Notes: generated by a model not told the origin, from the sequence alone. Positions 22,751 through 52,978 are shown, counted from the stretch's first letter. The stretch is DNA of 64,000 nucleotides from an uncultured Chloroflexia bacterium (GCA_963820415.1 CAWFZT010000004.1:261344-325343), one strand, 5' to 3'. A program made the numbers and translations.

Positions 22751-22845
22751 GGGCTCATTAGGATTTACCTTGGAAGGTCCCCAGATTTTGGGGTGTCATG
22801 ACACACCAAAATCTGGGAGTTCACCACAGCTATTCCCAGAGAACC
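22751..22845 (+). repeat. long-hairpin palindromic intergenic repeat, copy 1 (complete)
   Basis: The copy reads GGGCTCATTAGGATTTACCTTGGAAGGTCCCCAGATTTTGGGGTGTCATGACACACCAAAATCTGGGAGTTCACCACAGCTATTCCCAGAGAACC. Confidence 0.9.
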
Positions 22846-22847
22846 AC

Positions 22848-23825
22848 CTACGGGCCAGTACATTTCAGGGTGATATTGACTTTAGGAAACGCCTGGTGGT
22901 TAGGATCGTCAATGTAGATCCTTTCCCAATCGTGGTAGGTGTTGGGTTTAGCGCCGTAATTCCAGGTGGTCGTAACTGTTTTTGTTCCTGCCCCTGAAAA
23001 TGTTAGAGTTTCTGATGAGCTTGAAGAACTATCGCTGCGATCCCAATGGTAGGTAACGGTGCCGGCTTTGTTCACCTTTATTTTCGCTGTCCAGGTGAAC
23101 TCGTGTGGACAATCGCCGGTAAAACTACTGTCGTCTACCGTGGTGGTAATAGAAGTAACCGCAAAAGTAGTTTCGGTAGGGGAACCAACAGTGATCTTGA
23201 CCCAGAAAGCCTGGTTGGCATTGCTGCCCCACCCAAAGATTGCCCCGCCGGGGTTGCGCATTTTATAAAAGCCGGTATAGCTCTTAGGAGTGGTGGGTGA
23301 TGTCAGGCTTACTGAGACATTGACAGTCCCATTCGGAGCTACACTGGTCGTGATCGGAATCTGCGCTGGTGAGCTCATAGCATCCCCATTGAAAAAGACC
23401 ACCGAATACCCCGGGCCCCAGGTCGTGGTGCCGGCATTGGTAAGCTGCCAGGTCTTCGTGAAAGTCGTACCCGGATCGACCACTGTGTCATCCGGGTAAG
23501 TAATATCTTTGACATTCCCTAGTTTATCCAACGGGCCAATGGTGGAGGTTGGCGGGACCTGTGTCCAGGTAGCCACCGGCCTAGAAGTATCCGATGGCTC
23601 TGGGGTGTCGGCTGAAGCAGACGGCGCCAGTGTGTTGGTGGGCTTTTGAGGCGGTTTGGCAGTCTCTGCCATTTGTGTGCTCAACGCCTGGACAGTTAGC
23701 GCGGCAGCAGTACCGACCACATCTTGAACTGGGGTGGAGGATGGCGTTCCCATAGGCAGGTTGCATGAGCTAATCAATAATGAGAAGCAAATAACCAAAG
23801 ATAGGCTTGGAACCAGTTTCTTCAT
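22848..23825 (-). CDS. lipoprotein with NBR1-type Ig-like domain
   Basis: The start is the ATG at 23825 after AAGGAGGAG. It has a lipobox (LLISSC), a Thr/Pro-rich linker and ITYPDDTVVDPGTTFTKTWQLTNAGTTTW. Confidence 0.7.
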   Translation of the reverse strand: MKKLVPSLSLVICFSLLISSCNLPMGTPSSTPVQDVVGTAAALTVQALSTQMAETAKPPQKPTNTLAPSASADTPEPSDTSRPVATWTQVPPTSTIGPLDKLGNVKDITYPDDTVVDPGTTFTKTWQLTNAGTTTWGPGYSVVFFNGDAMSSPAQIPITTSVAPNGTVNVSVSLTSPTTPKSYTGFYKMRNPGGAIFGWGSNANQAFWVKITVGSPTETTFAVTSITTTVDDSSFTGDCPHEFTWTAKIKVNKAGTVTYHWDRSDSSSSSSETLTFSGAGTKTVTTTWNYGAKPNTYHDWERIYIDDPNHQAFPKVNITLKCTGP

Positions 23826-23884
23826 TTCTCCTCCTTGGTGCGTCAATGAAAATAGTGCTATATATATTCTATACCAGATTAAAA

Positions 23885-23908
23885 AAGATATTTCCCAGGA
23901 TATATCTT
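23885..23908 (-). terminator. weak AT-rich hairpin plus T-run downstream of 23949-25541
   Basis: The minus strand reads AAGATAT-ATCCTGGGAA-ATATCTT followed by TTTTT. Confidence 0.35.
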
Positions 23909-23948
23909 CTTATTATTAAACGTTCAACCCCTCAAAAAGTTCCCCTGG

Positions 23949-25541
23949 TTATCCAGTCCTGGAACGGTCCTGCCAGTTACGCAGTGTGGTCATCACCCGT
24001 TTCCAAAATTCTTGCAGCAGGTTGGCTTTTTCTCCATCAATCTCGTGCTTGCTGTAACGGGCTTCAACGAAAGAATCAGTGAGCGCATCAATTTCATTTT
24101 CAACTTCTGGCAGCGAAGTGCGCAAGGTCTGCTCGAATTGGAGTGGGGTTTGATGGAGCTTGCGCGGCAGCCCGTGCTGACCGCTGCGGCGGATCAGGGT
24201 CAGGTAATAGAAAATGACTTTCTGGCGTGGAGGAAGGCGGCGCGGGTTGGAGTACTCGGAGTTCTCAGCATTTGTCTTCGCTGAAAGAGCCGACCGGCCT
24301 CTCTGAAATGTAGCTGCCAGTGTATCCGAGATCTGTTGATTCACCCCCCGCAGCCAGGACCAAATGGATTTCAGTCCGGCGATGAACCAGGCAATAAAGG
24401 AGAGGCGTCCAAGAGAAGAAATTAGAACTTTATTCTGGATCACATACGTCTTGATTGCATAAAACAGGACTGCTGCGAATATCACCCAGAAAACCACCGC
24501 TCGTACCGTTTCCAGCCAGGGCAGCGGCGCAGGCGGGGGCGTGGTCTGTACCGGGCCAAATTGAGGAGTTCCCGGAGTTTGCGGCTGTTCCTGATTATTG
24601 CCTTTGAAGAACAATGAAAAAAACCAGGTGAAGAAAAAAGCAATTAAGGCAATGATAAATAAGAATATTTGGATGATATAAAAGAAGATGATTTGCAGGG
24701 CATATAGCAGTTGCAATGAATAATGGGTTGGTAAAAGGAGAATCAGGAAACCCAGAAGGACAAAAAATGCCAGCGTGTAGATAATCCAGTTCCTCGATAG
24801 AGCTGGGCTGACGGGGGTCCGTTGCCACAACCACCTGCCGTGAAGCAAGGCGAATTGGCTCTGGCTCAATAAAATGAGCGCCAGAACGAAATAGATGACC
24901 ACGTTGAGGACAGGCGCCTGCCAGGCATCCGGGATGCCCATCTGGGCCGGGAGGTTTGTCCGGGTAAGGGCCGTGAAAAATACGATGACCAGGCCGGTGC
25001 CTAATACAATTTCCAGCAACCGCTGGTGGGTGAACAGGCGATCTTTCTCCAGGAATCCGATATTTTCGTTAAAAACATCTTCTTCGTCGCTCTGTAACGT
25101 CTCAAAATCGGCCAGCAGGCGCCCACAGAGCAGACGGGTACTAAAGATCAGTATGACATCCAGAAAATATTCGAGAGAGAAAAAGGTGGACAGGTCCGTC
25201 TGCCATTGTTGGACATCGACCAGAATCTGGCTAAAACCGTGCAGGAAATACAAAAGGATTTTTACCAGGATGGCGATAAAAACAAACTCGGACGCCAGGA
25301 AGATTATTTTATCCCGCCCGGTCAGGGAACGAGTGATGTTTCGGGAAAGAATCGTTTCCAGGCTAACCGCCAGGAAAAACCAGGCCAGATAGGACCCATT
25401 CCAGCCGGGCGACATGCGCTCGCCAAAATTGACGAAGGTGATTCCGATACAGGCCATCATAATGCAAATAATGAATTGACCGGCGATGAAGGACAATTTC
25501 CGGTTCACCAAGAAATTCTTCTGCAAATTCTTGATGTTCAC
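23949..25541 (-). CDS. large polytopic membrane protein with C-terminal DUF4129-like domain
   Basis: 530 aa with many TM segments. The C-terminus TPLQFEQTLRTSLPEV...FVEARYSKHE is DUF4129-like. It has a 4-nt overlap with the DUF58 gene. Confidence 0.65.
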   Translation of the reverse strand: MNIKNLQKNFLVNRKLSFIAGQFIICIMMACIGITFVNFGERMSPGWNGSYLAWFFLAVSLETILSRNITRSLTGRDKIIFLASEFVFIAILVKILLYFLHGFSQILVDVQQWQTDLSTFFSLEYFLDVILIFSTRLLCGRLLADFETLQSDEEDVFNENIGFLEKDRLFTHQRLLEIVLGTGLVIVFFTALTRTNLPAQMGIPDAWQAPVLNVVIYFVLALILLSQSQFALLHGRWLWQRTPVSPALSRNWIIYTLAFFVLLGFLILLLPTHYSLQLLYALQIIFFYIIQIFLFIIALIAFFFTWFFSLFFKGNNQEQPQTPGTPQFGPVQTTPPPAPLPWLETVRAVVFWVIFAAVLFYAIKTYVIQNKVLISSLGRLSFIAWFIAGLKSIWSWLRGVNQQISDTLAATFQRGRSALSAKTNAENSEYSNPRRLPPRQKVIFYYLTLIRRSGQHGLPRKLHQTPLQFEQTLRTSLPEVENEIDALTDSFVEARYSKHEIDGEKANLLQEFWKRVMTTLRNWQDRSRTG

Positions 25542-26731
25542 GCCCGGTTTCTCCAGATTTCAAGATCCCGTTCAAACCACACCGGATAAACGGGAATATT
25601 GAACTGCCTGGCCTGTTGGCGGATTTCAGCCAGACCGGTGATGTTTCCACACAAAACCAGCACCACATCCAATCCTGCGCGCTGAGCGCGGTAAAATTCT
25701 TCAAACAATGTTTTATCCGCTTGCCCGGTAATTGCCACTAACGTTGATCCCCAGGAAAGGTGCACTCGCTGCTGGCGAATCAGCTCATTGACTGAGGTCG
25801 TATCGACCGTTTTCACTCGGGCAAGGGTTTCCAGAATTCGGATTAAATGACCGCGGCCCTTGTGCGGAGGCAACGGCTGAGTAATTTTGTCTTCGCACAG
25901 GGGATCCATTCCATTCGTTGCCAGCCCCACCGACTGTTTATGGGCGACTGCCCAGTTGGCGATAGAGGCGGCGGCGGTGATGGCGGTTTCAGTAGCGTCG
26001 AAGCGCGTTTTGTATTGATATTCTTCGTTGTTAAGGTTCAAGAAAATGGCGATCTCCAACTCGATGGAGGGTTCGAACTGCTTGACCTGCAGCCGTCCGA
26101 CCGACGCCGAGGCTTTCCAATCGATGCGGCGCAAGGAATCGCCGGTTATATAATCCCTTTTTCCGGTTGGCCTGTTAGGATCTTCGAATATGGGTTGTTT
26201 GTAGCGCAGCGTGCCAATCGGCGCGTGAGAAGGCAGGTTCAACTCGATAATCGGCACCACTCTGGGATAAACGATAATGTAATCGGATTTTCCTTCAAAC
26301 CGTTTTTCTTTTGTTAAACCCAGCACGTCTCCGGAGGAAAGTTGAAGCGGTCCAATGTTGTAATAGCCTCTTTTACGGCCGAACAACTGGTAGGATAAAC
26401 GCACACGTTGGCGGGGCGCCAGGGTTAGCACGCGTTGGAAAGTTGGCGATGTGCGAATCTCGACCGGCACTGATTCTTGCAGCTTCACCCATACCGCTGG
26501 CAGTCTGCCTTGATTGGTTACCTCGATTTCCAGAGTGATGATCTCACCCAGAAAGATCCTTTTTGAAAAAGTACGCCTGAAGGTAATTGATGCCAGGGCG
26601 CGTTCACTCCACCAGCGGCCTAGTAAGAATGCCCCCAACAGCAAGTAAAGCAGGGTAAAGACGAAGTTATCCTGGGTGGCAATAGCCATAGCAAGTAACA
26701 GAATGACATAGATTAAAATGGGTGCGTCCAC
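25538..26731 (-). CDS. DUF58 domain protein (MoxR partner)
   Basis: 397 aa with N-terminal TM helices and the motif DYITGDSLRRIDWKASAS. Confidence 0.8.
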   Translation of the reverse strand: MDAPILIYVILLLAMAIATQDNFVFTLLYLLLGAFLLGRWWSERALASITFRRTFSKRIFLGEIITLEIEVTNQGRLPAVWVKLQESVPVEIRTSPTFQRVLTLAPRQRVRLSYQLFGRKRGYYNIGPLQLSSGDVLGLTKEKRFEGKSDYIIVYPRVVPIIELNLPSHAPIGTLRYKQPIFEDPNRPTGKRDYITGDSLRRIDWKASASVGRLQVKQFEPSIELEIAIFLNLNNEEYQYKTRFDATETAITAAASIANWAVAHKQSVGLATNGMDPLCEDKITQPLPPHKGRGHLIRILETLARVKTVDTTSVNELIRQQRVHLSWGSTLVAITGQADKTLFEEFYRAQRAGLDVVLVLCGNITGLAEIRQQARQFNIPVYPVWFERDLEIWRNRA

Positions 26732-26776
26732 GAATCCTCGTTACGCAAAACCTGGCTGTTGGCATGCACAGCCATC

Positions 26777-27724
26777 TTACTTGAGATTGCCGATTTCTAA
26801 AGGTACCTGGGTCAATATGTCTTGAAGAATTGAGGCAGTGACGCGGCCGCGCAGCTCGGCTTCAGGTGATAGGACCAGGCGGTGGGTCAGTACTGCGGGA
26901 GCCAGGTATTGTATATCGTCCGGTATTACATGATCGCGACCTTTCATGGCTGCATACGCCTGTGCTGCGCGAAACAGGGCCAGGCTGGCCCGCGGGCTGG
27001 CGCCCAGGGAAAGGTCAGGATGGTGGCGGGTCGCATCAGATAGTTTCACAATATAATCATGCAGTGTGTCATCCACGTGGATATCCCACACCTGGTGCTG
27101 TAATTCGACCAGCCTCGTACCTTCTTCAACGCTGTGCAGGTGTAAGATGGGGTGTTCATACTGGAGGTGGGTCAAGAGCAGTTTCTCGTCCACCTGAGAA
27201 GGATATCCCATCGAGAGGCGCATTAAGAAGCGGTCGAGCTGAGCTTCGGGCAGCGGGAATGTGCCTTCGTATTCGATGGGATTTTCCGTCGCCAACACCA
27301 GAAAGGGTCGAGGTAGAGAGTAAGTGATGCCATCTACCGTGACCTGCTGCTCCTGCATGGCCTCAAGCAGGGCAGACTGGGTGCGCGGGGTGGCGCGGTT
27401 GATTTCATCTACCAGCATAATATTGACGAAAATCGGTCCCGGATGGAACTCAAATGAGCTGGTTTTCTGGTTGTACACCGACACACCGGTCACGTCGTTT
27501 GGCAGCAGGTCGGGTGTGCATTGGATCCGTTTGAATTTTCCGCCCAGGCTGGTAGCCATGGAACGCGCCAGCATGGTTTTTCCTACTCCAGGGACATCTT
27601 CCAGTAATACGTGCCCCTCACACAATAAGGCTACCATCAATAATTCGATTACCGGGCGTTTTCCGACAATCACATTTTCGACATTTTCAGTGACATGCGT
27701 CACAAATTCCTGAATGGTAGTCAT
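26777..27724 (-). CDS. MoxR-family AAA+ ATPase
   Basis: 315 aa. It has LLEDVPGVGKT, VDEINRATPRTQSALLEAM and LATENPIEYEGTFPLPEAQLDRF. Confidence 0.85.
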   Translation of the reverse strand: MTTIQEFVTHVTENVENVIVGKRPVIELLMVALLCEGHVLLEDVPGVGKTMLARSMATSLGGKFKRIQCTPDLLPNDVTGVSVYNQKTSSFEFHPGPIFVNIMLVDEINRATPRTQSALLEAMQEQQVTVDGITYSLPRPFLVLATENPIEYEGTFPLPEAQLDRFLMRLSMGYPSQVDEKLLLTHLQYEHPILHLHSVEEGTRLVELQHQVWDIHVDDTLHDYIVKLSDATRHHPDLSLGASPRASLALFRAAQAYAAMKGRDHVIPDDIQYLAPAVLTHRLVLSPEAELRGRVTASILQDILTQVPLEIGNLK

Positions 27725-27856
27725 CTTTACTCCGTCTTTGGATGGAAACTTTGATGGTTTGTTATCCTTTTATACCATTAACCTAGAAGGAAGAGTTAAG
27801 GCTCATTGGGAATTTCCCTCCTAGGTTCTTCCATGCGAAAACCCAAAGATCCAGAA

Positions 27857-29127: not shown

Positions 29128-29156
29128 GCTTCCTTCTCCTTATCCCTGTCTTGAAC

Positions 29157-29246
29157 CTGTTGGGAATTGCTTTGCTGGATCACCAGATTTTTGGGCGCCT
29201 AGGCGCCCAAAAATCTGAGTTCTTCTACGGAAAATCACAAAGAACC
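29157..29246 (-). repeat. palindromic intergenic repeat, copy 2 (diverged, different centre)
   Basis: The copy reads ...GGGAATTGCTTTGCTGGATCACCAGATTTTTGGGCGCCTAGGCGCCCAAAAATCTGAGTTCTTCTACGG... Confidence 0.7.
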
Positions 29247-33217: not shown

Positions 33218-33264
33218 TCGTACGATAAAGATTGTAAAAGTATACCAGTTTTTCAAAATGAGTT

Positions 33265-33330
33265 GGCTGGGAACCGGATAAATTATCACACCCCAAAACT
33301 GGGGACCTTCCACGGTAAATCCCGATGAGC
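33265..33330 (-). repeat. palindromic repeat, partial copy 3 (one hairpin arm missing)
   Basis: The copy reads ...CACACCCCAAAACTGGGGACCTTCCACGGTAAATCCCGATGAGC. Confidence 0.7.
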
Positions 33331-33416
33331 TTTATAATTGGTAGGCCAAATAAAGTTGACATCCTTCAGTAATATTAGTAAACTATGGATAGTTGCGCAC
33401 CACAAAGGAGGAAATT

Positions 33417-35642: not shown

Positions 35643-35725
35643 CTATGTGGTCAGAGTTCCCAAATAACGAATTGGACTCCTAACCGGTTGTATATTTCTC
35701 AGCTTAAGGCTAGAATAAATAGGGT

Positions 35726-35779
35726 CCCTTGGGAATCCCCGTGGTGAACTCGACCTTCCACGGCAAATCCCAATGAACC
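35726..35779 (-). repeat. palindromic repeat, copy 4, lacking the central hairpin
   Basis: CCCTTGGGAATCCCCGTGGTGAACTC|GACCTTCCACGGCAAATCCCAATGAACC. The two outer arms are joined directly. Confidence 0.7.
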
Positions 35780-37109: not shown

Positions 37110-37139
37110 GAGTTCTTCCACGGGGAATCCCAAAGGGTC
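37110..37139 (+). repeat. palindromic repeat, short fragment (copy 5)
   Basis: GAGTTCTTCCACGGGGAATCCCAAAGGGTC resembles one outer arm. Confidence 0.4.
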
Positions 37140-39268: not shown

Positions 39269-39280
39269 TTATCTTTTGGT

Positions 39281-39363
39281 GGTTTGGGATTTGCCGTGGA
39301 AGGCCCCGGATTTGGGGATGTGAGTGTGCGTACGCACACTCACATCCCCAAATCCGGAAGTCC
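39281..39363 (+). repeat. palindromic intergenic repeat, copy 6 (right outer arm truncated)
   Basis: The copy reads GGTTTGGGATTTGCCGTGGAAGGCCCCGGATTTGGGGATGTGAGTGTGCGTACGCACACTCACATCCCCAAATCCGGAAGTCC. Confidence 0.85.
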
Positions 39364-39409
39364 ATCATGGCGATTCAAAATGAACCAATCTTTTCTTAAG
39401 GAGTGCAGC

Positions 39410-40517: not shown

Positions 40518-40523
40518 GAATGT

Positions 40524-41743: not shown

Positions 41744-41851
41744 GGCTCATTGGGATTTACCGTGGAAGGTCCCCAGATTTTGGGGTATGAGCGTGCGTAG
41801 CACGCTCATACCCCAAAATCTGAGAGTTCACCACGGCTATTCCCAGAGAAC
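41744..41851 (+). repeat. palindromic intergenic repeat, copy 7 (complete, ~24-bp central stem)
   Basis: The copy reads GGCTCATTGGGATTTACCGTGGAAGGTCCCCAGATTTTGGGGTATGAGCGTGCGTAGCACGCTCATACCCCAAAATCTGAGAGTTCACCACGGCTATTCCCAGAGAAC. Confidence 0.9.
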
Positions 41852-43100
41852 TAACTTTTTTCGGAAAGGGCTTTTTCGTAAACTTCGATGACGCGGCTGG
41901 TGATCTTTTCCCAGGCGTAATTCTGCGCTTCGGCGCAGGCCTGCTCGCCCATCTGGCGCTGTATTTCTGGCTGGGAAATGAGGATTGAAAGGCGCTGGCT
42001 CAGGGTTTCGATATCCTCGTCCGGCACCACGTAACCGGTCACCCCGTCTTTGACAAGAAAAGGCAGCCCGCCGACCTGTGATGCAATCACCGGCGTCCCG
42101 CAGGCCATGGCTTCGAGCGCCACCATGCCGAAGGATTTGTAGTGCGATGGGATGATCAGCGCGTCGGCAGAGGAATAATAATAAGGCAGCGTGTCCTGTC
42201 CACGCTTTCCAAGGAACACCACCAGATCGTCCAGGTTCAGGGCGCGGCACAGGGCCTGCAGCCGGGCCATTTCGGCCGTCAAATTGTCGTCAGTCGCCTC
42301 AGGGTCGCCGCCAATGATCGCCAGGCAATGGGGATGCTGATCCAGGGTGCCGTTATTGCGCAGGATTGCCAGGGCGCGCAGGAGCGCATCCACCCCTTTC
42401 AGCGCTTCGATGCGGCCCACGAACAGCAGCATACGGCTTTCACAGGGAATGCCAATCACGCTCCTGGCTTCGTCGAGCGAGATTGGGTAGAAATGGTGTG
42501 TATCCACCCCGGGCGGGATGACGGTCAGTTTGGAAGAAGGGGCGTGGTAAAGGAATTCGAGCTGAGCTTGTTCGGCTTGCGTGGCGACAATCACCTGACG
42601 GGCCGCCCGCAGCACCTGCTGCTCTCCCTCGATGCGATATTCACCCTCTTTTCGGATTCGTCCCTGGCTACCCGGTTTTTCATCATTCCGAGGGTGTGGA
42701 ACATGTGCACGAAGGGAACCTTCCAGGTGCGCCCCAGTTCCATGGCGGCCATCCCGGACATCCAATAATGGCTGTGGATAATATCGTAGTGCAGACCTTT
42801 TTGGCCTGTAAATTTCAGAATGCTCTCAGAAAATTCGGGCAGGTAATCGATGAGCTGGTCTTTAGGCAGGTAAACCTCGGGGCCGGCAGGGATGTGGACG
42901 ACGCGGTTTCCATAGCCAAGCTCATGCAGCACGTGTGGAACGTGCTCATCCTGTGAGCGGGTGAATACGTCCACGTGCACGCCGGCCTGGCCCAGGTAAC
43001 GGGTCAGCTCGCGGACGTAAACATTCATCCCGCCGGTATCCTTGCCTCCCAGGATCGCCAGTGGGCAGGTGTGGTAAGACAGCATCGCCACGTTCAGCAT
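41851..43100 (-). pseudogene. GT4 glycosyltransferase (MshA-like), one frame disruption (or assembly indel)
   Basis: ORFs 42591-43148 and 41851-42765 are consecutive parts in different frames. The join lies near 42640-42700 (...HTLGMMKNRVARDES / RIRKEGEYRIEGEQQVLRAA...). The true start is the ATG at 43100 (MLNVAMLSYHTCPLAILGGKDTGGMNVYV). The ORF-track extension upstream of it overlaps the tRNA. Confidence 0.75.
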
Positions 43101-43104
43101 ACTC

Positions 43105-43134
43105 TTGTCTATTCTAACTTGCTCCTGGTATAAT
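43105..43134 (+). promoter_or_regulatory. promoter of tRNA-Thr
   Basis: TTGTCT, an 18-nt spacer, then TATAAT (43129-43134). The tRNA 5' end lies 10 nt downstream. TATAAT is retained in the second copy. Confidence 0.5.
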
Positions 43135-43143
43135 TTGCAAGCC

Positions 43144-43216
43144 GCCACCGTAGCTCAGTTGGTAGAGCAGACGATTCGTAATCGTCCGGTCAAGGGTTCG
43201 ACTCCCTTCGGTGGCT
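43144..43216 (+). tRNA. tRNA-Thr (anticodon CGU)
   Basis: 73 nt, folded by hand: acceptor GCCACCG/CGGTGGC, D arm GCTC-AGTTGGTA-GAGC, anticodon arm GACGA-TTCGTAA-TCGTC, T arm AAGGG-TTCGACT-CCCTT, discriminator T. No CCA is encoded. Confidence 0.9.
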
Positions 43217-43377
43217 TTTTTCATAATGAACTGGTGGGATTTAAACGGTAAACTCTTTAATTTAGCGAATGACTATGAAACATACCTAATTGCAGGGAGC
43301 AACAAAACCAGATGGATAAAAATCCATCTCGTTTTATGGCAGTTGGATTTTACCTAATGGGGTTGGGATTTCTTTTA

Positions 43378-45399
43378 TTAGTTCTTCAACTTATATATTT
43401 TCCAATGATCTTTACCTATTTCCCCGGCAATATCGTAATTCATACAAATGTAATTTAATACTTCAAACATGTCATCAGGTAGGGGTTTTTCTGGCATGAT
43501 GCACTGGCCGCTGTGATTAATTTCGATAAATGGCGTCGATGGTAAATAAGTATTTATTATGATTTTAGGGGGTTTAGTTTTAAGATCATTGAGCATCTCT
43601 TGAGACAGCTCTGGGCTTGCATAACCAATACGGTATAACGGCTTTTGATGCACAAATCGAGTTGGGGCATCCCGGCCTGACATAAAATTAATGACGGTTT
43701 GAGATCCCCAAAGTAAAACATAATCCCCCTGTTTAGTTGTAGATTTAATATATTGAACAACTTTGGTAACAGCTATTTCAGGGGGCTGCTGGTACTCTTT
43801 AATAAGTTGGATGATGGGTTTATACACAATCATAATCAAGGCGATCATATAAATAATAAACTTCAAAGAATGGTTTGATATGGGTTTATGAGCATATTCC
43901 CATCCATAACCAATCAAAATAGCGAAACATGGTAACAAGGTAAAAAAGTAATGATGATAGTTCTTACCAGACAGGCTGATAAGAATAATTTCAATCGGGA
44001 AATCAACCAAAGCCACAAGCAAAATCACAGGCAATTTTCTGACATAATCTATGCCCCGTCTGACAAAAGCAGCCCAAATCACCAGGCCAAAATAATAAAA
44101 CCAGGATGCTGTTAGAAACACCCGGAATATACTCCCAACTGCTTCAATTCTGTCTTGTGTTGTAATATCCGAATACAGGAAATTAAAACGATAAGCGACA
44201 TCCCAGAATTCCCAAAGTGAGTGATTGATATAGAAATAGAGGATGCAAGCACCTTGCACCAACACCAGCCCGCCCAAAAACCAGAAGAAATCGGCCAAGT
44301 GGATTGTTCTATCTTTGGTTAAGAATTTATAAGCAGAGATAATCAATAATGCGGCCCAAATCCCGATCAGGGTTTGTTTGAGCATTAAAGCCATTCCCAT
44401 CGCCCCGCCAATTAAAAACCACCTCCATGGTTTTTTCTTATCCATCACCATGAAATGACAGAATAAGAACAGGGCAATGCACTGGAATGGTATGCCAAAC
44501 TCTTCGGTGAAGTTACCACCTTCATTTGGGAAAACAATATTGGTTATTAACCCGACCAAAGCTAATAATAAAGCTGGCATGGAAACATTTTTCCGAAAAA
44601 CTCCATATAACAGTAAAACTGAGGCAAACAATGACATCACTTCTAATGCCCACACCCCCCATATTGAACGATTTGATATGAATAGCCCCAGCGCATCAAT
44701 ATAAAAAATTAACGGCGGTTTGTGATCCCAAAGATTCTTATAGGGGATATCTCCCTTAAGAATACGTGAGCCAAAATAGAGAAAAATACCCGAATCATTT
44801 TGAGGCATCTGCCCAGAAAAAACGGGGGAAATAGCCAAATAAACGCCAATAGTGAGAAAAGCTGCCAGGGGAATAAACCAAAACAAGGGATGGATTGTTT
44901 TTATGAAATTATTCACTTCTTTAAAAGCAACATCCCAGTTCTCGCTGGTAAGAATAAGATCTTTAAAATACAACCTGATTATGATTAATAATTGAAGACC
45001 TAAAATTAACAACCATGCAATAAAGAAAACCCCTCTTTGGAGGAAAAAGCCTATAGAACCTAAGAACATCATATCTGATAGGGCTGCAATAATGAGCGCA
45101 AATATGGCTAACAGAACAAAACACAGGCATAGTGTCGTTATATAGATTATCCGATGAGCCGATTGTAGGAAGCGGTAAAATTTTTCAAGCCATGCCGGTC
45201 TTGTGGCAAATACTATGAGGGCTGTTATATACACAAACACACAAAAAATAATACAAAAAAGCATTAACAATCTGGGCAGAGAAAATCCATAGATAATGGC
45301 ATTTTTCTCCATGGAAGTGGATGAAGAAATGAGATAAACAATGATTGAACTAACAATAATAAATATACTGGTCAGAATTTGAGTAAATTTATTCTTCAT
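43378..45399 (-). CDS. GT-C fold membrane glycosyltransferase (ArnT/PMT-like)
   Basis: 673 aa with more than 10 TM segments and a soluble C-terminal domain. It is AT-rich. The family call rests on architecture and general resemblance. Confidence 0.6.
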   Translation of the reverse strand: MKNKFTQILTSIFIIVSSIIVYLISSSTSMEKNAIIYGFSLPRLLMLFCIIFCVFVYITALIVFATRPAWLEKFYRFLQSAHRIIYITTLCLCFVLLAIFALIIAALSDMMFLGSIGFFLQRGVFFIAWLLILGLQLLIIIRLYFKDLILTSENWDVAFKEVNNFIKTIHPLFWFIPLAAFLTIGVYLAISPVFSGQMPQNDSGIFLYFGSRILKGDIPYKNLWDHKPPLIFYIDALGLFISNRSIWGVWALEVMSLFASVLLLYGVFRKNVSMPALLLALVGLITNIVFPNEGGNFTEEFGIPFQCIALFLFCHFMVMDKKKPWRWFLIGGAMGMALMLKQTLIGIWAALLIISAYKFLTKDRTIHLADFFWFLGGLVLVQGACILYFYINHSLWEFWDVAYRFNFLYSDITTQDRIEAVGSIFRVFLTASWFYYFGLVIWAAFVRRGIDYVRKLPVILLVALVDFPIEIILISLSGKNYHHYFFTLLPCFAILIGYGWEYAHKPISNHSLKFIIYMIALIMIVYKPIIQLIKEYQQPPEIAVTKVVQYIKSTTKQGDYVLLWGSQTVINFMSGRDAPTRFVHQKPLYRIGYASPELSQEMLNDLKTKPPKIIINTYLPSTPFIEINHSGQCIMPEKPLPDDMFEVLNYICMNYDIAGEIGKDHWKIYKLKN

Positions 45400-45404
45400 G
45401 TCTT

Positions 45405-46976
45405 TTAGTTACCGGTCATCTTATAAACCGTCAAGATATCAGCATCGCCGACCTTTATAGAATAAACAGCCTTCCCTGCAATATGTCTGTTTATAGAGTA
45501 GTAATAAGTAGTTATGGTGTAATCTGGCGGTTGGTCTTCAGAGATGATCAATCTCTGACGATCTGATAATGGCAACAGCATCTTCCCATTTGGGAAATCT
45601 AAAACTCGCACAATTATTTTTTGACCGGGGTCTGTTCTGGCGATATACTTCAAGCCATCCAAGGTCGACACTCCCCACACATCCAGGCCAAACCGCTCTT
45701 TGATGATTGACATTTTGGAACCGGCCAGAAAATTGAAGTAAGTATATTGGTAGGGATGATAGCGGATCATAAAATAGACCGGATAAGCCAGCCCAATGAT
45801 TAAAATTAAGGTTGTCCAAAGCCGCCAGGATTGGGTTTTTTGGCGCATTTTATCAGTGAGAGACTTGAAGCCATATAACGAGATCAACAACAAGGCAGGA
45901 TAGACGAAGTACATCTGGCGATTATCGGTATAGATGACCGATTTCATCACGATCACGGCGACAATGGGGAGAATGCCACAGGCTGCGACCAGGTACAGGT
46001 TGCGCATGGACAGGAAATGTTCTCTTAACCTGGACTTTAAAGTATGGACGGCGAGGGTTATGCTACCTAGAAGAAACAGCGCCAGGTAGAACACAGGCGA
46101 GCTGATCGAGAACCAGACGATAGAATAATGCCAGGGAATGTTGTTTCGGATATCATGTCCCATGTATAACTGAAAATCATTCCACGGGTACTGTTTCATA
46201 AGTTTAAAGGCCTGGACATAATTTTCAATGGTGTGCGTATACAATGTTGGGGTAAACCAATTCACCAATCCTGCAGCCACAAACAAAGACGTAAGCAAGA
46301 AGATGCCGGCTTTTAGATAACTCCTCCATTTGTCTCTAGACAAAAACAGATCGAAGAAATAGAAAAAGAGGGTAATCGGAATGATGATCAACCCTGGCGT
46401 GCGGATGCTGCATACTACCCCAATCGCAATGCCGTGCAAGATGGCTGTGAAAATATTTTTCTTTTCCAGGAGCAGCAGCAAGGTATAAATAGAAATGACA
46501 TACGCGCTCAGGAAAGGAATGTCTTTGGGATTGTAGAAGGAATGGGCGAAAATCCTGGGGCTGATAATGAGGAACAGCGAGCCTAACAAGCCGATCTTCC
46601 AATCCTTGAAGATCTTCTTCCCGATCAGGAAAAAGATAAACACGGAAAATACAAAAAAGGCAAAGGTTACTTGATGCCGTCGCCAATAGATCGCCTGTGT
46701 ATCTCCGCTCGGAGCGAACCAATATAGAACCATGCTGAAAAGTGGAGGATAATAGCAAACGTTTTCCCACCCGGTACATGCCTTCACAAACTCGCTTTGG
46801 AGGCCTCCGATAAAGCGTTCGTAATTGACCCTTCCCCTGAGAAAATCAATTTTTTCATCTACAGATATTCCGTAATCTTTATAAATTAAGAAACCTGTTA
46901 AACTGTACGTACAAAAAAAACAAAATACGAAGAGTGCCGGAAGTATTTTTCTTTGGCCAAATTTTATTCCCTTCAT
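45405..46976 (-). CDS. GT-C fold membrane glycosyltransferase (ArnT/dolichyl-phosphate-mannose mannosyltransferase-like)
   Basis: 523 aa. The N-terminal YKDYGISVDE and PPLF loop motifs resemble the GT39/GT83 first periplasmic loop. It is polytopic and AT-rich. Confidence 0.65.
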   Translation of the reverse strand: MKGIKFGQRKILPALFVFCFFCTYSLTGFLIYKDYGISVDEKIDFLRGRVNYERFIGGLQSEFVKACTGWENVCYYPPLFSMVLYWFAPSGDTQAIYWRRHQVTFAFFVFSVFIFFLIGKKIFKDWKIGLLGSLFLIISPRIFAHSFYNPKDIPFLSAYVISIYTLLLLLEKKNIFTAILHGIAIGVVCSIRTPGLIIIPITLFFYFFDLFLSRDKWRSYLKAGIFLLTSLFVAAGLVNWFTPTLYTHTIENYVQAFKLMKQYPWNDFQLYMGHDIRNNIPWHYSIVWFSISSPVFYLALFLLGSITLAVHTLKSRLREHFLSMRNLYLVAACGILPIVAVIVMKSVIYTDNRQMYFVYPALLLISLYGFKSLTDKMRQKTQSWRLWTTLILIIGLAYPVYFMIRYHPYQYTYFNFLAGSKMSIIKERFGLDVWGVSTLDGLKYIARTDPGQKIIVRVLDFPNGKMLLPLSDRQRLIISEDQPPDYTITTYYYSINRHIAGKAVYSIKVGDADILTVYKMTGN

Positions 46977-47283
46977 ATTCCATAATTTCCTTTCACTTCT
47001 GTTTCCGCTAAAAGCAGAACTCTAAACAGCCGGAAAAGAATTCCGGAGTTATCTAAACTTAACAATTGAACCTGTTATCTGTACAACGATTTCAACGGTT
47101 GCGTCAAAACGCTCCTTTTCAAATGCAATGCCAGGATTCTGTTAGGTAAATAGATGGTGACCAAAGCCTTTTTGCGTAGTTGTTCTGGTAAAGGGTAACT
47201 TTGCGGAAAGGATTTACTCGTCAAGATGTTGTGGAAGTGCCCAGGCGTACGTTTCTGGTGGCGATCCCACAAATATGTGGGTG

Positions 47284-47379
47284 CAACTCGCGCACGTAAA
47301 CGTTCATCCCGCCGGTATCCTTGCCTCCCAGGATTGCCAGCGGGCAGGTGTGGTAAGATAGCATCGCCACGTTAAGCAT
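47284..47379 (-). pseudogene. 5' fragment (32 codons) of a second GT4 (MshA-like) gene
   Basis: The encoded MLNVAMLSYHTCPLAILGGKDTGGMNVYVREL is identical to the intact gene despite 7 nucleotide differences. Homology ends at codon 33. Confidence 0.85.
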
Positions 47380-47422
47380 ACTCTTGTCTATTCTAACTTG
47401 CTCCTGGTATAATCTGCAAGCC

Positions 47423-47495
47423 GCCACCGTAGCTCAGTTGGTAGAGCAGACGATTTGTAATCGTCCGGTCAAGGGTTCGACTCCATTCGGTGGCT
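47423..47495 (+). tRNA. tRNA-Thr (anticodon UGU), with one T-stem mismatch
   Basis: It is identical to 43144-43216 except for anticodon loop TTTGTAA (C34 to T) and T-stem 3' strand CCATT, which gives a G:A mismatch. Confidence 0.8.
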
Positions 47496-47564
47496 TTTTT
47501 ATTTTAATTTCCAGTAACTGCTCAGGCACTGGGGTGGTAAACATTCTTTAGAAACGAAAAGAGG

Positions 47565-47705
47565 TCACTGTAAGGTGAACTCCTTTCTTAAGGTTGAGTA
47601 TAGCATTGCCTGATCATTCACAGTATAGACTTGAGAAGGCGTCTGGTAGTCGAGGGCCTGGTGAGGGCGCCCGAAGTTGAAGAAGTGGAAGTAGTCTTTG
47701 AAAAG
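47565..47705 (-). mobile_element. C-terminal relic of an rve (DDE integrase-core) transposase, IS3/IS481-like
   Basis: The minus-strand translation is LFKDYFHFFNFGRPHQALDYQTPSQVYTVNDQAMLYSTLRKEFTLQ*. It carries the typical Y/FN..RPHQAL.Y.TP..VY tail. No upstream part is present. Confidence 0.7.
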
Positions 47706-47714
47706 GACAATAAA

Positions 47715-47951
47715 TTATTGTTGTATTTTTATTGTCTTCCAAAGAGGATTTAGGTAATCTATGCTTTCACCGGAAAATCTAGCGTGATCTTGATGATGTA
47801 TACACTCTGGGTTATTACAAAGAAAATTGTCACACAGAATTGATGAAGGCATATCCTTTTTATATTTTAATTCCCTTAAATCCACAATTTTCATTATATT
47901 GGATGCATAGCAAAATTTAGACATAGGTGTTTCACTATAAGCCTTTGCCAT
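47715..47951 (-). CDS. small Cys/His-containing hypothetical protein in AT-rich DNA
   Basis: 78-aa ORF only. No family recognised and no clear SD. Confidence 0.3.
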   Translation of the reverse strand: MAKAYSETPMSKFCYASNIMKIVDLRELKYKKDMPSSILCDNFLCNNPECIHHQDHARFSGESIDYLNPLWKTIKIQQ

Positions 47952-48026
47952 TTCTGTACCCTCCCTTTATGAATTGTGAAAACAATTCATAATAATTATA
48001 TACCTTTAATCTTAACTGTCTGCCGT

Positions 48027-48662: not shown

Positions 48663-48716
48663 GCTAGCCTGAATTATATAACACCTGGCAGGGATAGTCC
48701 TGTTTTTACTTTCGAA

Positions 48717-49694
48717 TTAATCGTCGAAGACCCGCGGCCGGTTTCCCAGGATGCCTTCTATGCGTTCCATCACGTCTGGGGTAAGCTTTTCAGCTACCTC
48801 GGACGCTTTCATGTTTTCGACCACCTGCTCGGGACGGCTGGCGCCAGTGATGACTGTGCTGACGTGGGGATTTTTCAGCGCCCAGGCCAGGGCAAGCTGC
48901 GCCAGGCTGGCGCCCAGGTCGCTGGCAACCGGCAGGAGGTTCTTGATTACCTGCGCTTTCTCAGGCGCCAGAGCATAATCCCTGAGCCATCCCATATCTG
49001 GCAAGTCCATGCGGCTGCCTTTGGGAATGCCATTCAGATATTTGCCCGACAGGAGGCCCGAAGCCAGCGGGCTGTATATGGTCGTGCCATAGCCCAGGTC
49101 CCGGAATAGCGGCGCATATTCAACTTCGAAGCGCTGGCGGTTGAGCATGTTGTACTGCGGCTGTTCCATGCTGGGCGGGGTCAATCCGTATTGGCGGGCG
49201 ATCCCATCCGCCCGCATGATATCGGCGGCAGACCATTCCGAAGTGCCCCAATAAAAAGCTTTACCCTGGCGGATGACCAGGTCGAAGGCGCGCACCGTCT
49301 CTTCAATCGGAGTATTGGAGTCAGGCCGGTGGGCGAAAACCAGGTCCACGTAATCGAGTTGGAAGCGGTGTAAGGAATTATTGACCCCTTCGATGATGTG
49401 TTTATGGGATAACCCGGTGTCATTCGGCCCGTCTCCGCCCCAAAAAATCTTTGTTGAGACGACGTAGCTCGACCGGCGCCAGCCCATTTTCTTCAAGACG
49501 TTCCCCATCACCATTTCAGCATTTCCGTGGGCATAGGCTTCGGCGTTATCGAAAAAGTTCACCCCATTTTCATAAGCGGCTTTCATACAGGCTGCCGCGG
49601 TGTCTTCGCCTATCTGTTCGCCAAATGTGACCCAAGACCCCAAGGATAATTCACTCAATTTCAGCCCGGCTTTCCCTAAACGACGGTAGTTCAT
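48717..49694 (-). CDS. aldo/keto reductase (Kv-beta/Tas-like)
   Basis: 325 aa. The N-terminus is [21 protein letters not shown], and FFDNAEAY and [11 protein letters not shown] are present. Confidence 0.85.
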
Positions 49695-49834
49695 CTTTCC
49701 TCCTGAAATATTAACGTTTTAAGACCTATTATATACTAATTGAGGAAAAAGTCTGCATAATGGAACAGCTTTTGTAAAATCATTACGCCAGTTACCCCAT
49801 TTCCCCATCAGTTTCGTTTATAATTAAGTTAATC

Positions 49835-49927
49835 GTTCTCTGGGAATAGCCGTGGTGAACTCCCAGATTTTAGCTTGTCATGACATCCCAAAATCTGGGG
49901 ACTTTCTATGGTAAATTCCAATGAGCC
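49835..49927 (-). repeat. palindromic intergenic repeat, copy 8 (complete, inverted orientation)
   Basis: The copy reads GTTCTCTGGGAATAGCCGTGGTGAACTCCCAGATTTTAGCTTGTCATGACATCCCAAAATCTGGGGACTTTCTATGGTAAATTCCAATGAGCC. Confidence 0.9.
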
Positions 49928-50023
49928 AAGTTAATTGTGAAGCGCCGATAGTTTTTGTTGAATAGGGGTCAGGTGGATTTTTTTTGCTTCTACCCGCCAT
50001 ACTAATATCCGGCTTTGGTGATC

Positions 50024-50686
50024 ATGGACAAATGGATTGAATTATTGAAAACATTCTGGGTTCTGCTCCAACAGGGGCAACTGCCAGAAGTCGGACGTTG
50101 GAATTATCTCCTGTTAGCCATCCTGGTTGCGCTCGAAGGGCCGATTGCCACGCTGTTGGGCGCCGCAGCTGCCTCGGCGGGTCTGATGCGCATCTGGGCC
50201 GTCTTTGTCGCCGCAGCGGCCGGCAACCTGACTGCCGACACGCTGTGGTACCTGTTGGGGTATTACGGGAAGGTTGATACGGCTCTCAGGCTGGGGCGGT
50301 GGGCCGGTTTGAAACGCAAACATCTGGACCGCCTCACCGTTGCCATGCAGAAGCATGCGCTTAGAATTCTCTTTTTCGCCAAGCTGACCGCAGGTTTCAT
50401 GATCCCCTCTTTGATTGCTACCGGCCTGGCGCGTATTCCGTGGAAGCGCTGGTTCCCGGTAGTTTTTCTGGGGGAAATGATCTGGACTGGATCGCTCTTG
50501 TTGATTGGTTTTTATACGACCGAAGCGATCAAAGCAGTCGCACAGGGCATCGCCCTGATTGTGGTTGGGGCGTCAATCTTGTTCCTTTTCGTAATTATCT
50601 GGCAGGGGCGCCGCATCTTGATGAGCACCAAAGAATTTAACGATGCCATGTATGGCGAAAACGGTGACAACCATAACAAATCATAG
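50024..50686 (+). CDS. DedA/VTT-domain membrane protein
   Basis: ORF 50015-50686, with the first ATG at 50024. It has LEGPIATLLGAAAASAG...GNLTADTLWYLLGYYG. Confidence 0.7.
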   Translation: MDKWIELLKTFWVLLQQGQLPEVGRWNYLLLAILVALEGPIATLLGAAAASAGLMRIWAVFVAAAAGNLTADTLWYLLGYYGKVDTALRLGRWAGLKRKHLDRLTVAMQKHALRILFFAKLTAGFMIPSLIATGLARIPWKRWFPVVFLGEMIWTGSLLLIGFYTTEAIKAVAQGIALIVVGASILFLFVIIWQGRRILMSTKEFNDAMYGENGDNHNKS

Positions 50687-50759
50687 GTGATTGCGGTGAG
50701 GTCAAGCGGCATTGACCGGCGGCATCTTCACATCATCTTATTCAGAACTGGAGTTCAGG

Positions 50760-51935
50760 ATGCGGATTTTGATCACAGGTTCAACCTATGCCCCTGCCTT
50801 CAACGGGCAGTCTATGTTTACAACCAATCTCGCTGAAGGGTTGGCGCGGCGCGGGCATGAGGTGTGGGTCTTGCTCCCCTCAGATAAGGGTAAGCCATAC
50901 AGCCTGGAGCGCAATGGAGTCCACATCCGTACGGTAAGCGCAACAGAAATAACCTTTCTTCACTCCGAAGCGTACGCCTCTGCATTTCCCGGGTCTGAAG
51001 TAAACCGTTTTCTAAAGGATTTTAAAGCGGACGTTATCCACCTGCAAGACCATTATCCGATCAGTGTAAGTGTATTGTTCCAGTCCAGGCGCTCAAAAAT
51101 AAAGGTGGTTGGCACGAACCATTTTATGCCTGAAAATTTGCTGCCATATATCCCTCTGTCGCCGGTTTTGAAACCGGTCTTGAACCGCATCATGTGGGAA
51201 TGGATGAAGTTTACCTATAATCGGCTGGATATGGTGGTTGCCCCTTCCAGGACGGCAGCCGAAATTATCCGCAAACAGAAGCTGCGCGTGCCTGTACAGG
51301 CCATTTCTTGCGGAGTAAGCCTGCAGCGTTTCCATCCAGATGAGACGGTTGACCGGAGGGCTCTCAGGTTGCGCTATGGCCTTGACCCGCAACGAACTAC
51401 TTTTTTGTTCGTTGGCAGGGTGGATGGTGAAAAGCGGGTAGACGTCTTGATCCGAGCCATCAAATCCTTGGGACGGCATGATATCCAATTGGCGGTTACC
51501 GGGAAAGGGGCTGCCTTACCTGGCCTGAAGGGCCTGGCGCGGGATTTAAAAGTAGATGATTTGGTGCGCTTTACAGGTTTTGTGCCGGATACAGACCTGC
51601 CAGCCCTGCTCAACAGCATCGATGTCTTTGCCATGCCCAGCGAAGCAGAACTGCTCAGTATCGCCAGCCTGGAAGCTATGGCGACCGCCCGGCCTGTCCT
51701 GGCGGCAAATTCTCAAGCTCTGCCAGAACTGGTCGCCAATGATGTGAATGGATACCTGTTCAAGCCCGGCAGCGTTTCCGATATCACGCGCTGTATGGCG
51801 TTGCTGGTGGACCATCCAGAGCGCTGGTCAGCCATGGGCGCAGCCAGCCTGGAAAAAGTGCAGGTGCACAGCCTGGAGAATATGTTGACAAGCTATGAAC
51901 GGCTTTACCTGCAGCTCCTTGAAAAAGCGGATTAA
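50760..51935 (+). CDS. GT4 family glycosyltransferase
   Basis: The ATG at 50760 gives MRILITGSTYAP. It has the E-x7-E region SEAELLSIASLEAMA. Confidence 0.8.
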   Translation: MRILITGSTYAPAFNGQSMFTTNLAEGLARRGHEVWVLLPSDKGKPYSLERNGVHIRTVSATEITFLHSEAYASAFPGSEVNRFLKDFKADVIHLQDHYPISVSVLFQSRRSKIKVVGTNHFMPENLLPYIPLSPVLKPVLNRIMWEWMKFTYNRLDMVVAPSRTAAEIIRKQKLRVPVQAISCGVSLQRFHPDETVDRRALRLRYGLDPQRTTFLFVGRVDGEKRVDVLIRAIKSLGRHDIQLAVTGKGAALPGLKGLARDLKVDDLVRFTGFVPDTDLPALLNSIDVFAMPSEAELLSIASLEAMATARPVLAANSQALPELVANDVNGYLFKPGSVSDITRCMALLVDHPERWSAMGAASLEKVQVHSLENMLTSYERLYLQLLEKAD

Positions 51936-52756
51936 AATTGCCGTTTCAGGCTACGGGATTGGATATCCGCTGAAGCCAGGTGAACTGCATCTACAGGCGG
52001 TAATACCGGGACAGTGATCTGGCCTTCTTCCGGGTCCCCTAAACGGGTGATGTTTTGCGGTTGGTTAATGGATAGCCAACTCACGTAAGCCATTGCCAGG
52101 GCGTTCAGCTCTGGAGGCGAGAAGATTTTTTCCGTCGGGATAATGCTATGTAAAAGACGGAACCGGGTGACCTCTTCAAAGAAGGTCATTGGATCAGATA
52201 CAGGAAGCTCGCGATCGTACAGGACAAGCTGGCGTTGAATTCTTCCTTCGAGTGAGTTGGCCTCAAAGGGGATGGCGCCCAACAGCGCATAAAAAAAGGT
52301 CTCAGATTGGCTTTCCTCCCATTGGCGGGTTGAGTTATCCGAAGGGAAGCAGTTGTAATCAAGGTTGCTGAGGCTTCCGTATAGGTTAAAGCCAGACCGT
52401 ATCCAGCCGGGACTGTCTTCAACGGAAGCCGGGGTGCGAGGGACGCTCACCCCGCGCAGGCGCGCTTCGTACTCCGCCACGCGCATATTGATGCGTCGCC
52501 CGGTATGAGGAGGCGTGTTCATTTTTTGACGGAATTCGGGATCGTTCATCAAGCCGGTATTAGGGCGCTGTGGGGCGTTGATTGTGACCAGCACGCTGCT
52601 CAAGCCGGCGCAGAATCCCAGCACTTCCAGTTCCTCGCCCCGGCTTAGCGCCAGCAGGTGAAAGTCCGCATCCATCGCTGCCAGGGTGTATGGCCTGCGA
52701 CCACCAGAAATATTAATCCCCATATAGGCTAAAGGTTTGAAAACCATGCTAAGCAC
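51932..52756 (-). CDS. hypothetical protein (weak DUF429/RNase H-fold-like resemblance)
   Basis: 274-aa ORF. The N-terminal GINISGG...VLVTINAPQ pattern is the only support for the family. The start could be the ATG at 52723. Confidence 0.45.
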   Translation of the reverse strand: MLSMVFKPLAYMGINISGGRRPYTLAAMDADFHLLALSRGEELEVLGFCAGLSSVLVTINAPQRPNTGLMNDPEFRQKMNTPPHTGRRINMRVAEYEARLRGVSVPRTPASVEDSPGWIRSGFNLYGSLSNLDYNCFPSDNSTRQWEESQSETFFYALLGAIPFEANSLEGRIQRQLVLYDRELPVSDPMTFFEEVTRFRLLHSIIPTEKIFSPPELNALAMAYVSWLSINQPQNITRLGDPEEGQITVPVLPPVDAVHLASADIQSRSLKRQF

Positions 52757-52874
52757 CAGTTTAGCGTAAAATCAGACAGCCCGCAACTGAAATAGAGCCC
52801 CATTTTTTACCGGGCTTCGGCGTGAATGATTTGACACTTCCGTTTGAAAAATTTCTGGACTATACTTATTATTG

Positions 52875-52978
52875 TCCATTGGGATTTTCTGTGAAAGGTC
52901 CCCAGATTTTGGGGGGTGAGCGTGCGTAGCACGTTCACCCCCCAAAATCTGGGAGTTCACCACGGTTATTCCCAGAGG
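52875..52978 (+). repeat. palindromic intergenic repeat, copy 9 (complete)
   Basis: The copy reads TCCATTGGGATTTTCTGTGAAAGGTCCCCAGATTTTGGGGGGTGAGCGTGCGTAGCACGTTCACCCCCCAAAATCTGGGAGTTCACCACGGTTATTCCCAGAGG. Confidence 0.9.

Follow-up and report, generated by a model that had tools for sequence, protein, structure and literature searches.

The stretch of 64,000 nucleotides from an uncultured Chloroflexia bacterium (GCA_963820415.1 CAWFZT010000004.1:261344-325343), hereafter called the window, carries a family of palindromic intergenic repeats. Judging from sequence comparisons, these repeats are very probably miniature transposable elements with inverted repeats (MITEs) that arose from both ends of an insertion sequence (IS) of the ISL3 family and spread through intergenic DNA; the probability of this assignment was estimated as about 0.88. 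In an earlier note on the same DNA, the repeats were described as a polar, possibly mobile intergenic family of the REP/BIME/MITE type. The MITE option is supported by target-site duplications (TSDs), by empty sites in related genomes and by termini matching those of ISs. As is characteristic of prokaryotic MITEs, the elements are short and non-coding, possess terminal inverted repeats and a TSD of fixed length, occur as dispersed copies with empty sites, and share their ends with autonomous ISs. As for their derivation from ISL3, the TSD is 8 bp long, the imperfect inverted repeats begin with GG, and elements with the same inverted repeats encode a DDE_Tnp_ISL3 transposase.

Structure and Polarity of the Elements

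Repeat finding and reading of the sequence reproduced the palindromic consensus in the 64-kb window; the consensus given in the earlier note is accurate, and both orientations are present. A full copy consists of the left terminus GGCTCATTGGGATTTACCGTGG followed by AAGGTC, an inner part, and the right terminus, which in reverse complement reads GGTTCTCTGGGAATAGCCGTGG followed by TGAACT. The inner part is nearly perfectly self-complementary (CCCAGATTTTGGGG-core-CCCCAAAATCTGGG), and its core varies by copy: TGTCATGACA in the 94-bp copies, TATGAGCGTGCGTAGCACGCTCATA and its relatives in the 109-bp copies, and GCGCCTAGGCGC in the copy at 29154. Each end of approximately 45 nt comprises a 22-nt terminal core (GGYTCWYTGGGAWTWRCCGTGG), a spacer of 6–7 nt that distinguishes left ends from right ones, and an inner CCCAGAT(n)GGGGT motif. 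The 22-nt core is found at both ends in inverted orientation and forms the terminal inverted repeats. The size classes are about 50, 57, 69, 94, 109 and 120–130 bp. Elements of 50–130 bp have no coding capacity; where open reading frames (ORFs) extend into them, the N-terminal extension is false.

Since its two ends are inverted repeats, the sequence of the whole element corresponds to a long imperfect hairpin; the differences between left and right ends make it polar. When 34 copies were aligned with MAFFT and analysed with RNAalifold, the consensus was poor because indels were placed asymmetrically; this analysis was replaced by arm-versus-arm identity, computed over the outer 28 nt of the 34 copies. 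The left arm and the reverse-complemented right arm of one copy are 63% identical, versus 75% for left arms and 74% for right arms compared between copies. Therefore, two end types exist, each conserved across the family, and the arm asymmetry pointed out in the earlier note is real and family-wide. Two joined IS ends of approximately 45 nt explain part of this polarity.

Target-Site Duplications

For the analysis of TSDs, the boundaries of the elements were fixed on the conserved ends, and the 8 nt before each element were compared with the 8 nt after it. Flanking 8-bp repeats matching at 7/8 positions or better were found in six of the seven window copies. In the total set of 73 MITE-sized elements from the window and metagenome loci, 30 match at 8/8 and 15 at 7/8, and none of the 73 reached 7/8 in a control shifted 20 nt outward. 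The duplicated target sites are 77% A+T. Target-site duplications, which the earlier note had proposed to test for, are thus present and have a length of 8 bp.

ISL3 Elements with Matching Ends

Metagenome contigs were scanned with the shared terminal core TCWYTGGGAWTWRCCGTGG, and at least 120 loci were detected, so the family is abundant beyond the window; MITE-sized copies occur in approximately 60 loci among the matches listed. Over approximately 45 nt, the termini of the MITEs (GGCTCATTGGGA..CCGTGG, then CCCAGAT..GGGG) agree with the inverted repeats found in metagenomic elements of 1.36–1.40 kb. In three metagenome loci (L115, L074 and L122), the inverted cores lie 1355–1399 bp apart and enclose a single ORF of 415–442 aa each. 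According to the Pfam analysis, the encoded proteins contain PF01610 DDE_Tnp_ISL3 (E 1e-63 to 1e-68) together with PF14690 Zn_ribbon_ISL3, and their scores with NCBIfam NF033550 are 284–312 bits against a cutoff of 180. Homologues of the ISL3 transposase number in the thousands and reside mostly on contigs of 1.4–1.9 kb, a preponderance as expected for multi-copy ISs. On longer contigs, perfect 8-bp TSDs flank the elements of L129 (1372 bp, TTTTCCGA) and L138 (1398 bp, TTGAAATC).

The left end of the ISs (GGCTCATTGGGAGTTACCGTGGTGCCCCCCAGATATAGGGGGTA) parallels the left arm of the MITEs (GGCTCATTGGGATTTACCGTGGAAGGTCCCCAGATTTTGGGGTA), and the MITE profile aligns to the IS ends across model positions 2–44/50. 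The terminal core, the inner inverted-repeat motif and the 8-bp TSD are common to the MITEs and the elements of L074, L115, L122, L129 and L138. The earlier note had suggested a RAYT/IS200-like or other transposase as the mobilising enzyme; a family with matching ends was indeed found, but it is ISL3 and not RAYT/IS200.

In addition, ISL3 elements of the P0155 type (1398 bp) are recurrently inserted among clusters of genes for tyrosine recombinases of the Phage_integrase family (L137, positions 2899–7951; L138, 269–2809; L139; L143), and the insertions adjoin IS91-type and IS605 OrfB fragments. These insertion sites are mobile-element hotspots in the metagenomic hosts.

Presence and Absence in Related Genomes

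Named homologues of the window proteins belong to Chloroflexota, Anaerolineae, Anaerolineaceae or Levilinea, with an identity of 60–76%. Two related contigs, L145 and L146, are syntenic with the window over 21 kb, and their DinB proteins fall into a cluster of approximately 88% identity. They yielded no profile match at E ≤ 0.1 in a region where the window has five copies. In the contig L126 (DinB identity 88%), dinB and the neighbouring GT4 gene overlap, with no MITE between them. In L127 (DinB identity 94%), the dinB site is occupied by a copy of the 94-bp subtype. A further contig, L149, shows 97.8% DNA identity over 8.1 kb and contains orthologues of the copies at 49834 and 52873 of the same subtypes.

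Comparison of individual sites showed that the site 39278–39386 carries no MITE in L126, L128, L145 and L146; the site 41744–41852 is empty in L126, L145 and L146; and the copy 49834–49927 is absent from L145 and L146. When the element 52873–52981 and one of its duplicates are removed, the window sequence aligns without gaps to L145 and L146, which have a single CTTACCCT or CTTACCTT at this position. Hence, the empty sites that the earlier note proposed to look for in relatives do exist, and one of them (52873–52981) is precise and gapless. Since the copies are absent in relatives at approximately 88% DinB identity and shared with the 98%-identical L149, they spread after that split. In terms of these comparisons, the family appears to have expanded recently in this Anaerolineae lineage.

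A scan of GTDB representatives with the right arm, the source species not being among them, found true relatives of the repeats in only one Anaerolineales metagenome-assembled genome; matches in Streptomyces and Limnoglobus were rejected as chance. In viral contigs, no MITE was found, the two matches being chance ones within coding DNA, and the plasmid collection gave no match. Contigs L005 and L150, originating from other samples, terminate inside copies, which is an effect of the repeats on assemblies.

Proposed Mechanism and Points against It

The elements would consist of two IS ends of approximately 45 nt joined head-to-head through a short palindromic core that replaces the transposase gene. 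As the DDE family suggests, an ISL3 transposase encoded elsewhere in the genome would bind both ends, excise or copy the element, and insert it at a staggered 8-bp cut, whereby the 8-bp AT-rich target would become duplicated, as is seen at the insertion sites. A preference for AT-rich targets and selection against gene disruption may then keep the copies in intergenic spacers.

Several observations weigh against the derivation from ISL3 ends by simple transposition. No detectable duplication flanks the copy 29154–29246, which is presumably an old insertion, since no target duplication is recognisable. Several IS copies on short contigs of approximately 1.5 kb have unrelated flanks without target duplications; the missing TSDs probably reflect assembly collapses, and the swapped flanks among L138, L140, L142, L143 and L144 suggest assembly chimeras or IS recombination. 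At the left end, the MITEs typically carry the variant GGGATTT, and the IS ends examined have GGGAATT or GGGAGTT instead; for the MITE core past GGGGT, the IS interiors examined offer no equivalent. The full-length matching ISs come from metagenome contigs without established taxonomy, and a tblastn search with ISL3 transposases found none in the 64-kb window. Simple transposition also does not explain the different core at the orthologous site of L127. Nor does it explain regional clustering: according to a crude gene map, copies occupy 10 of approximately 19 intergenic gaps at 22.7–53 kb versus 0 of approximately 15 elsewhere (hypergeometric p about 7e-4). Local hopping or regional differences could be behind this clustering.

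RNA Structure and Alternative Explanations

Folding energies predicted for the hairpins range from −65 to −73 kcal/mol, and the 109-bp forms have z values of about −10 to −13. A search of the window against Rfam 15 at the gathering score passed only two tRNAs and no family for the repeats, and a relaxed search returned only generic miRNA-precursor hairpins far below the threshold on both strands. On both strands, TTTT lies before the long stem and AAAA after it. An intrinsic (Rho-independent) terminator was rejected because an A-run instead of a T-run follows the stem and the terminator scan flagged the long hairpin of no copy; its one call within a copy (49886–49900) is a mini-stem of 5 pairs. 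Folding energy showed no strand preference over 65 copies (39 vs. 25, mean difference −1 kcal/mol); the minus orientation folds better for some window copies, and this effect vanishes over the 65. No bias of gene orientation supporting an RNA role was found. Analysis of shape, strand and orientation therefore lends no support to the terminator, stabiliser or small RNA (sRNA) roles considered in the earlier note. Because the repeats have no Rfam family, no terminator shape and no strand preference, and relatives exist without copies, possible effects on neighbouring genes (hairpins in transcripts, displaced promoters) were treated as by-products, which would not be the reason for the existence of the elements.

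The hairpins might nevertheless be primarily functional RNA or DNA structures that are retained or spread through their use by the host, as proposed for REP and ERIC. This agrees with the very stable predicted folding, with the position of the copy 39278–39386, which lies upstream of a start codon (by 24 nt) in what is likely an N_BRCA1_IG–PGI operon, and with the inner arms, whose identity is 88% inside one copy and 63% from copy to copy, as structural selection would give. However, the TSDs, the precise empty sites and the IS-matching termini show arrival by transposition, relatives lack copies at the same loci, and copies are found in convergent, divergent and tandem contexts and in both orientations. 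Moreover, folding has no strand bias, the stem is followed by an A-run, and Rfam contains no match, so this explanation seems very unlikely. We gave an even smaller chance to MITEs moved by another transposase producing 8-bp TSDs (for instance, of IS256, IS1595 or IS6), with a coincidental likeness to ISL3. It is general knowledge that several IS families produce 8-bp duplications, and the window has no ISL3 gene; yet the match to ISL3 ends covers approximately 45 nt (21/22 in the core plus CCCAGAT..GGGGT) and recurs in several distinct elements, and all full-length elements found between such ends encode an ISL3 transposase.

Alternatively, every copy could be what is left in place of an independently inserted full-length IS after loss of its interior, the short forms never having moved. 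A solo end (37112–37139), a deleted copy (33262–33331) and several size classes would fit such an origin. It is made highly improbable by recurrence of the 94-bp core TGTCATGACA at 22752, 49834, L038, L047, L075 and L127, and of 109-bp cores at 41744, 52873 and L084: independent deletions would not reproduce identical junctions and cores at unrelated loci, and the cores are without counterpart in the IS interiors examined. The least probable option, with a nearly negligible chance, is that of REP/BIME palindromes spread by a RAYT (IS200/IS605-like Y1) transposase. The repeats resemble REP/BIME in being intergenic, palindromic and multi-copy, but they measure 93–109 bp rather than 20–40 bp, end with GGCTC without a GTAG or CGTC tag, and are flanked by fixed 8-bp TSDs, which RAYT/IS200-type single-strand transposition does not make; in addition, no Y1 transposase was found among the window genes scanned.

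Copies in the Window

An nhmmer profile was built from seven copies and searched back against the 64-kb window. Its matches comprise six full copies of 93–109 bp, short forms of 53 and 57 bp, a copy with an internal deletion and a solo end. All ten are intergenic and lie within 22.7–53 kb, in accordance with the confinement to intergenic DNA described previously. The regions 1–22.7 kb and 53–64 kb contain no credible profile match (best others E > 1), which agrees with the reported absence of copies from the first 22 kb. The 15-mer CCCCAGATTTTGGGG occurs 9 times in the window at ≤2 mismatches, against 0.32 expected.

The profile recovered every site listed in the earlier note, including full copies and weaker matches; the reading of the weaker ones changed. 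Of the three sites given as partial copies, the one at 35723–35779 (minus strand) is not a fragment and represents a complete 57-bp short form without the inner hairpin, because two 28-nt termini are simply abutted; it has its own TSD (7/8, plus strand ATAAATAG / GTAAATAG). The other two, noted at 33265 and 37110, were refined to an internally deleted copy and a solo end, respectively. The former (33262–33331, minus strand; E 1.5e-8, model positions 3–48) retains a whole left arm and the right terminus TTCCCAGCCAAC, and the latter (37112–37139, minus strand) is the terminus GACCCTTTGGGATTCCCCGTGGAAGAAC, a remnant of a copy located just downstream of the AI-2E transporter gene. The degenerate trace at 27799–27848 is a real site, better read as a degenerate 53-bp short form consisting of the two termini only (27800–27852, plus strand; flanks AGAGTTAA / AGAATTAC, 6/8).

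The full copy of the 94-bp subtype at 22752–22845 (plus strand, nhmmer E 3e-27, core TGTCATGACA) is flanked by TSDs at 22744–22751 and 22846–22853 (ACCTACAG / ACCTACGG, 7/8) and by two minus-strand genes, which according to Pfam encode an MFS transporter and a protein with the N_BRCA1_IG domain. The second copy of this subtype (49834–49927, minus strand) has a perfect TSD (AAGTTAAT / AAGTTAAT, 8/8) and separates the divergent aldo/keto reductase and VTT-domain genes. The diverged full copy of 93 bp with the core GCGCCTAGGCGC is located at 29154–29246 (plus strand, nhmmer E 1e-18, TSD 4/8 at best). Three full copies, all on the plus strand, belong to the 109-bp subtype. The first (39278–39386; TSD TATCTTTT / AATCTTTT, 7/8) has plus-strand genes on either side and precedes the PGI start codon (39410) by 24 nt. 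The second (41744–41852; core TATGAGCGTGCGTAGCACGCTCATA; TSD AATTTTTT / AACTTTTT, 7/8) separates the convergent dinB and GT4 genes, and the third occupies 52873–52981 (TSD CTTATTAT / CTTATTCT, 7/8). Tandem, convergent and divergent gene contexts are all represented, with both orientations of the element, as had been described.

The false N-terminal extensions of ORFs mentioned in the earlier note were confirmed: the ORFs starting at 52916, 39284 and 33313 all begin inside copies. The copy 52873–52981 supplies the false GTG start 52916 for the aldehyde dehydrogenase ORF, and the copy 33262–33331 supplies the false GTG start 33313 for a methyltransferase ORF. According to orthologues, the true starts are 53018 for aldehyde dehydrogenase (ATG; 528 aa in relatives) and 39410 for PGI.

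Evolution of the Core

The similarity of the two inner arms within a copy points to their co-evolution, in which either the hairpin would be selected or the arms would be homogenised, e.g., by template switching at quasi-palindromes. At the orthologous dinB site, the window carries the 109-bp subtype and L127 the 94-bp subtype between the same flanks, with an identical T/C mismatch of the duplicates in both. The common mismatch favours a single ancestral insertion whose core was later replaced, most simply by gene conversion from a different copy. More tentatively, and with a rather low probability, the inner part could be more than filler: the core may be actively maintained and exchanged between copies (by template-switch "palindrome correction" and ectopic gene conversion) or selected for transposition or for a host RNA or DNA role. 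If so, the MITE would be modular, its core behaving like a cassette and evolving fast. With approximately 70 copies, it offers a clean data set on the evolution of palindromic MITE cores.

In many 109-bp cores (41786–41810 in the window; L088; L084), the half-site TGTGAGCG lies approximately 10 nt from its complement CGCTCACA. We take this pair to resemble operator half-sites of the LacI/GalR type; because the spacing is wrong for such operators, the likeness is probably a coincidence.

Comparison with Known Elements

In Microcystis aeruginosa, a 187-nt MITE with ISL3-type ends (GGCTCTTCG) and 8-nt direct repeats has been described (PMC11448079), MaeMITE families have been listed (PMC2779907), and the 8-bp duplication and imperfect inverted repeats beginning with GG are family properties reported for Microcystis ISL3 elements (PMC11448079). 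Like that MITE, the elements of the window are non-coding and form a stem-loop, are present in many copies, and have imperfect terminal inverted repeats of the ISL3 type (GGCTCT...) and 8-nt repeats; in both cases mobilisation would occur in trans. The hosts differ, being Chloroflexota/Anaerolineae here and Cyanobacteria there, and the sequence relationship is shown only for the GGCTC start. Unlike the 187-bp element, the window family measures 50–130 bp and combines two IS ends with a variable palindromic core in nested sizes. With ISL3-family ISs it shares the terminal core, the inner inverted-repeat motif and the 8-bp TSD; unlike them, its members have no transposase gene, have the GGGATTT left end and possess a centre unrelated to the IS interior.

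The elements are also comparable, in general form, to ERIC/IRU of enterobacteria, Correia/NEMIS of Neisseria and RUP of Streptococcus pneumoniae, which are dispersed intergenic long hairpins of approximately 100–150 bp found in both orientations, may land inside transcripts and confuse ORF calling. ERIC, Correia and RUP are, in outline, IS-derived and non-autonomous. They are tied to other transposases and duplications (TA for Correia and RUP), whereas the present family has 8 bp and ISL3.

The literature searched contained no account of this family or of a similar Chloroflexi/Anaerolineae MITE. The degree of novelty suggested in the earlier note found no support, since the class is well known, ISL3-derived MITEs having been published (PMC11448079). 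No new kind of system is revealed, as ISL3-derived MITEs with 8-nt TSDs are already known; the family provides an example of such MITEs outside cyanobacteria. In practice, it yields false starts and ORF extensions, which a profile for the family would remove from gene annotations, and it fragments short-read assemblies of Anaerolineae, a group abundant in metagenomes from peat, sediment and digesters. The insertions, present at 98% identity and absent at approximately 88% DinB identity, can serve as markers of recent divergence and ISL3 activity.

Other Features of the Window and Related Contigs

The minus-strand GT4 gene 41866–43085, beside the MITE 41744–41852, has a frameshift near 42648–42651 compared with the 408-aa orthologue of L126, with residues 1–146 in one frame and 146–407 in another; either the gene is a pseudogene or an error was made in sequencing. 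A 217-nt direct repeat with 95% identity (43005–43221 and 47284–47500) contains a complete tRNA-Thr, a stretch resembling a promoter and the initial 27 codons of the GT4 gene. The anticodon of tRNA-Thr is CGT at 43144–43216 and TGT at 47423–47495. Between the two repeats lies a 4-kb block (43222–47283) of low GC content (40–42%) with two genes of PMT_2-family membrane glycosyltransferase-like proteins (43378–45399 and 45405–46976). The block looks like an insertion or duplication at a tRNA locus, because L145 and L146 run from the GT4 gene toward the aldo/keto reductase gene without it.

The L145 spacer orthologous to the site 52873–52981 contains a different repeat (16733–17491), composed of tandem units of approximately 170 bp, each with the inverted repeat GGGCGAATGGGACGG...CCGTCCCATTCGCCC. 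L146 has one unit (about 17400–17600), and the repeat is absent from this spacer of the window.

Relatives (L126, 1–5435; L145, 1380–7566; L146, 1347–7536) possess a gene cluster of the formate-dehydrogenase type, with a molybdopterin oxidoreductase, an Fe-S protein, a Complex1_51K-type subunit, NTP_transf_3 and FdhD. In L145 and L146, it is located between the AI-2E transporter and N_BRCA1_IG genes, and L126 starts inside the cluster. It is absent from the window at approximately 37.1–38.2 kb, where the solo MITE end 37112–37139 is found.

Finally, the region 900–7000 of the window contains several paralogous stretches with 76–86% identity (961–1047/2075–2161, 5209–5288/6587–6666, 913–981/6696–6764, 2031–2088/2990–3047 and 3034–3068/6744–6778). 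These point to a few duplicated genes forming a small family in this left-end part of the window, near the Mg-chelatase ChlI-like ATPase gene (6209–7492).

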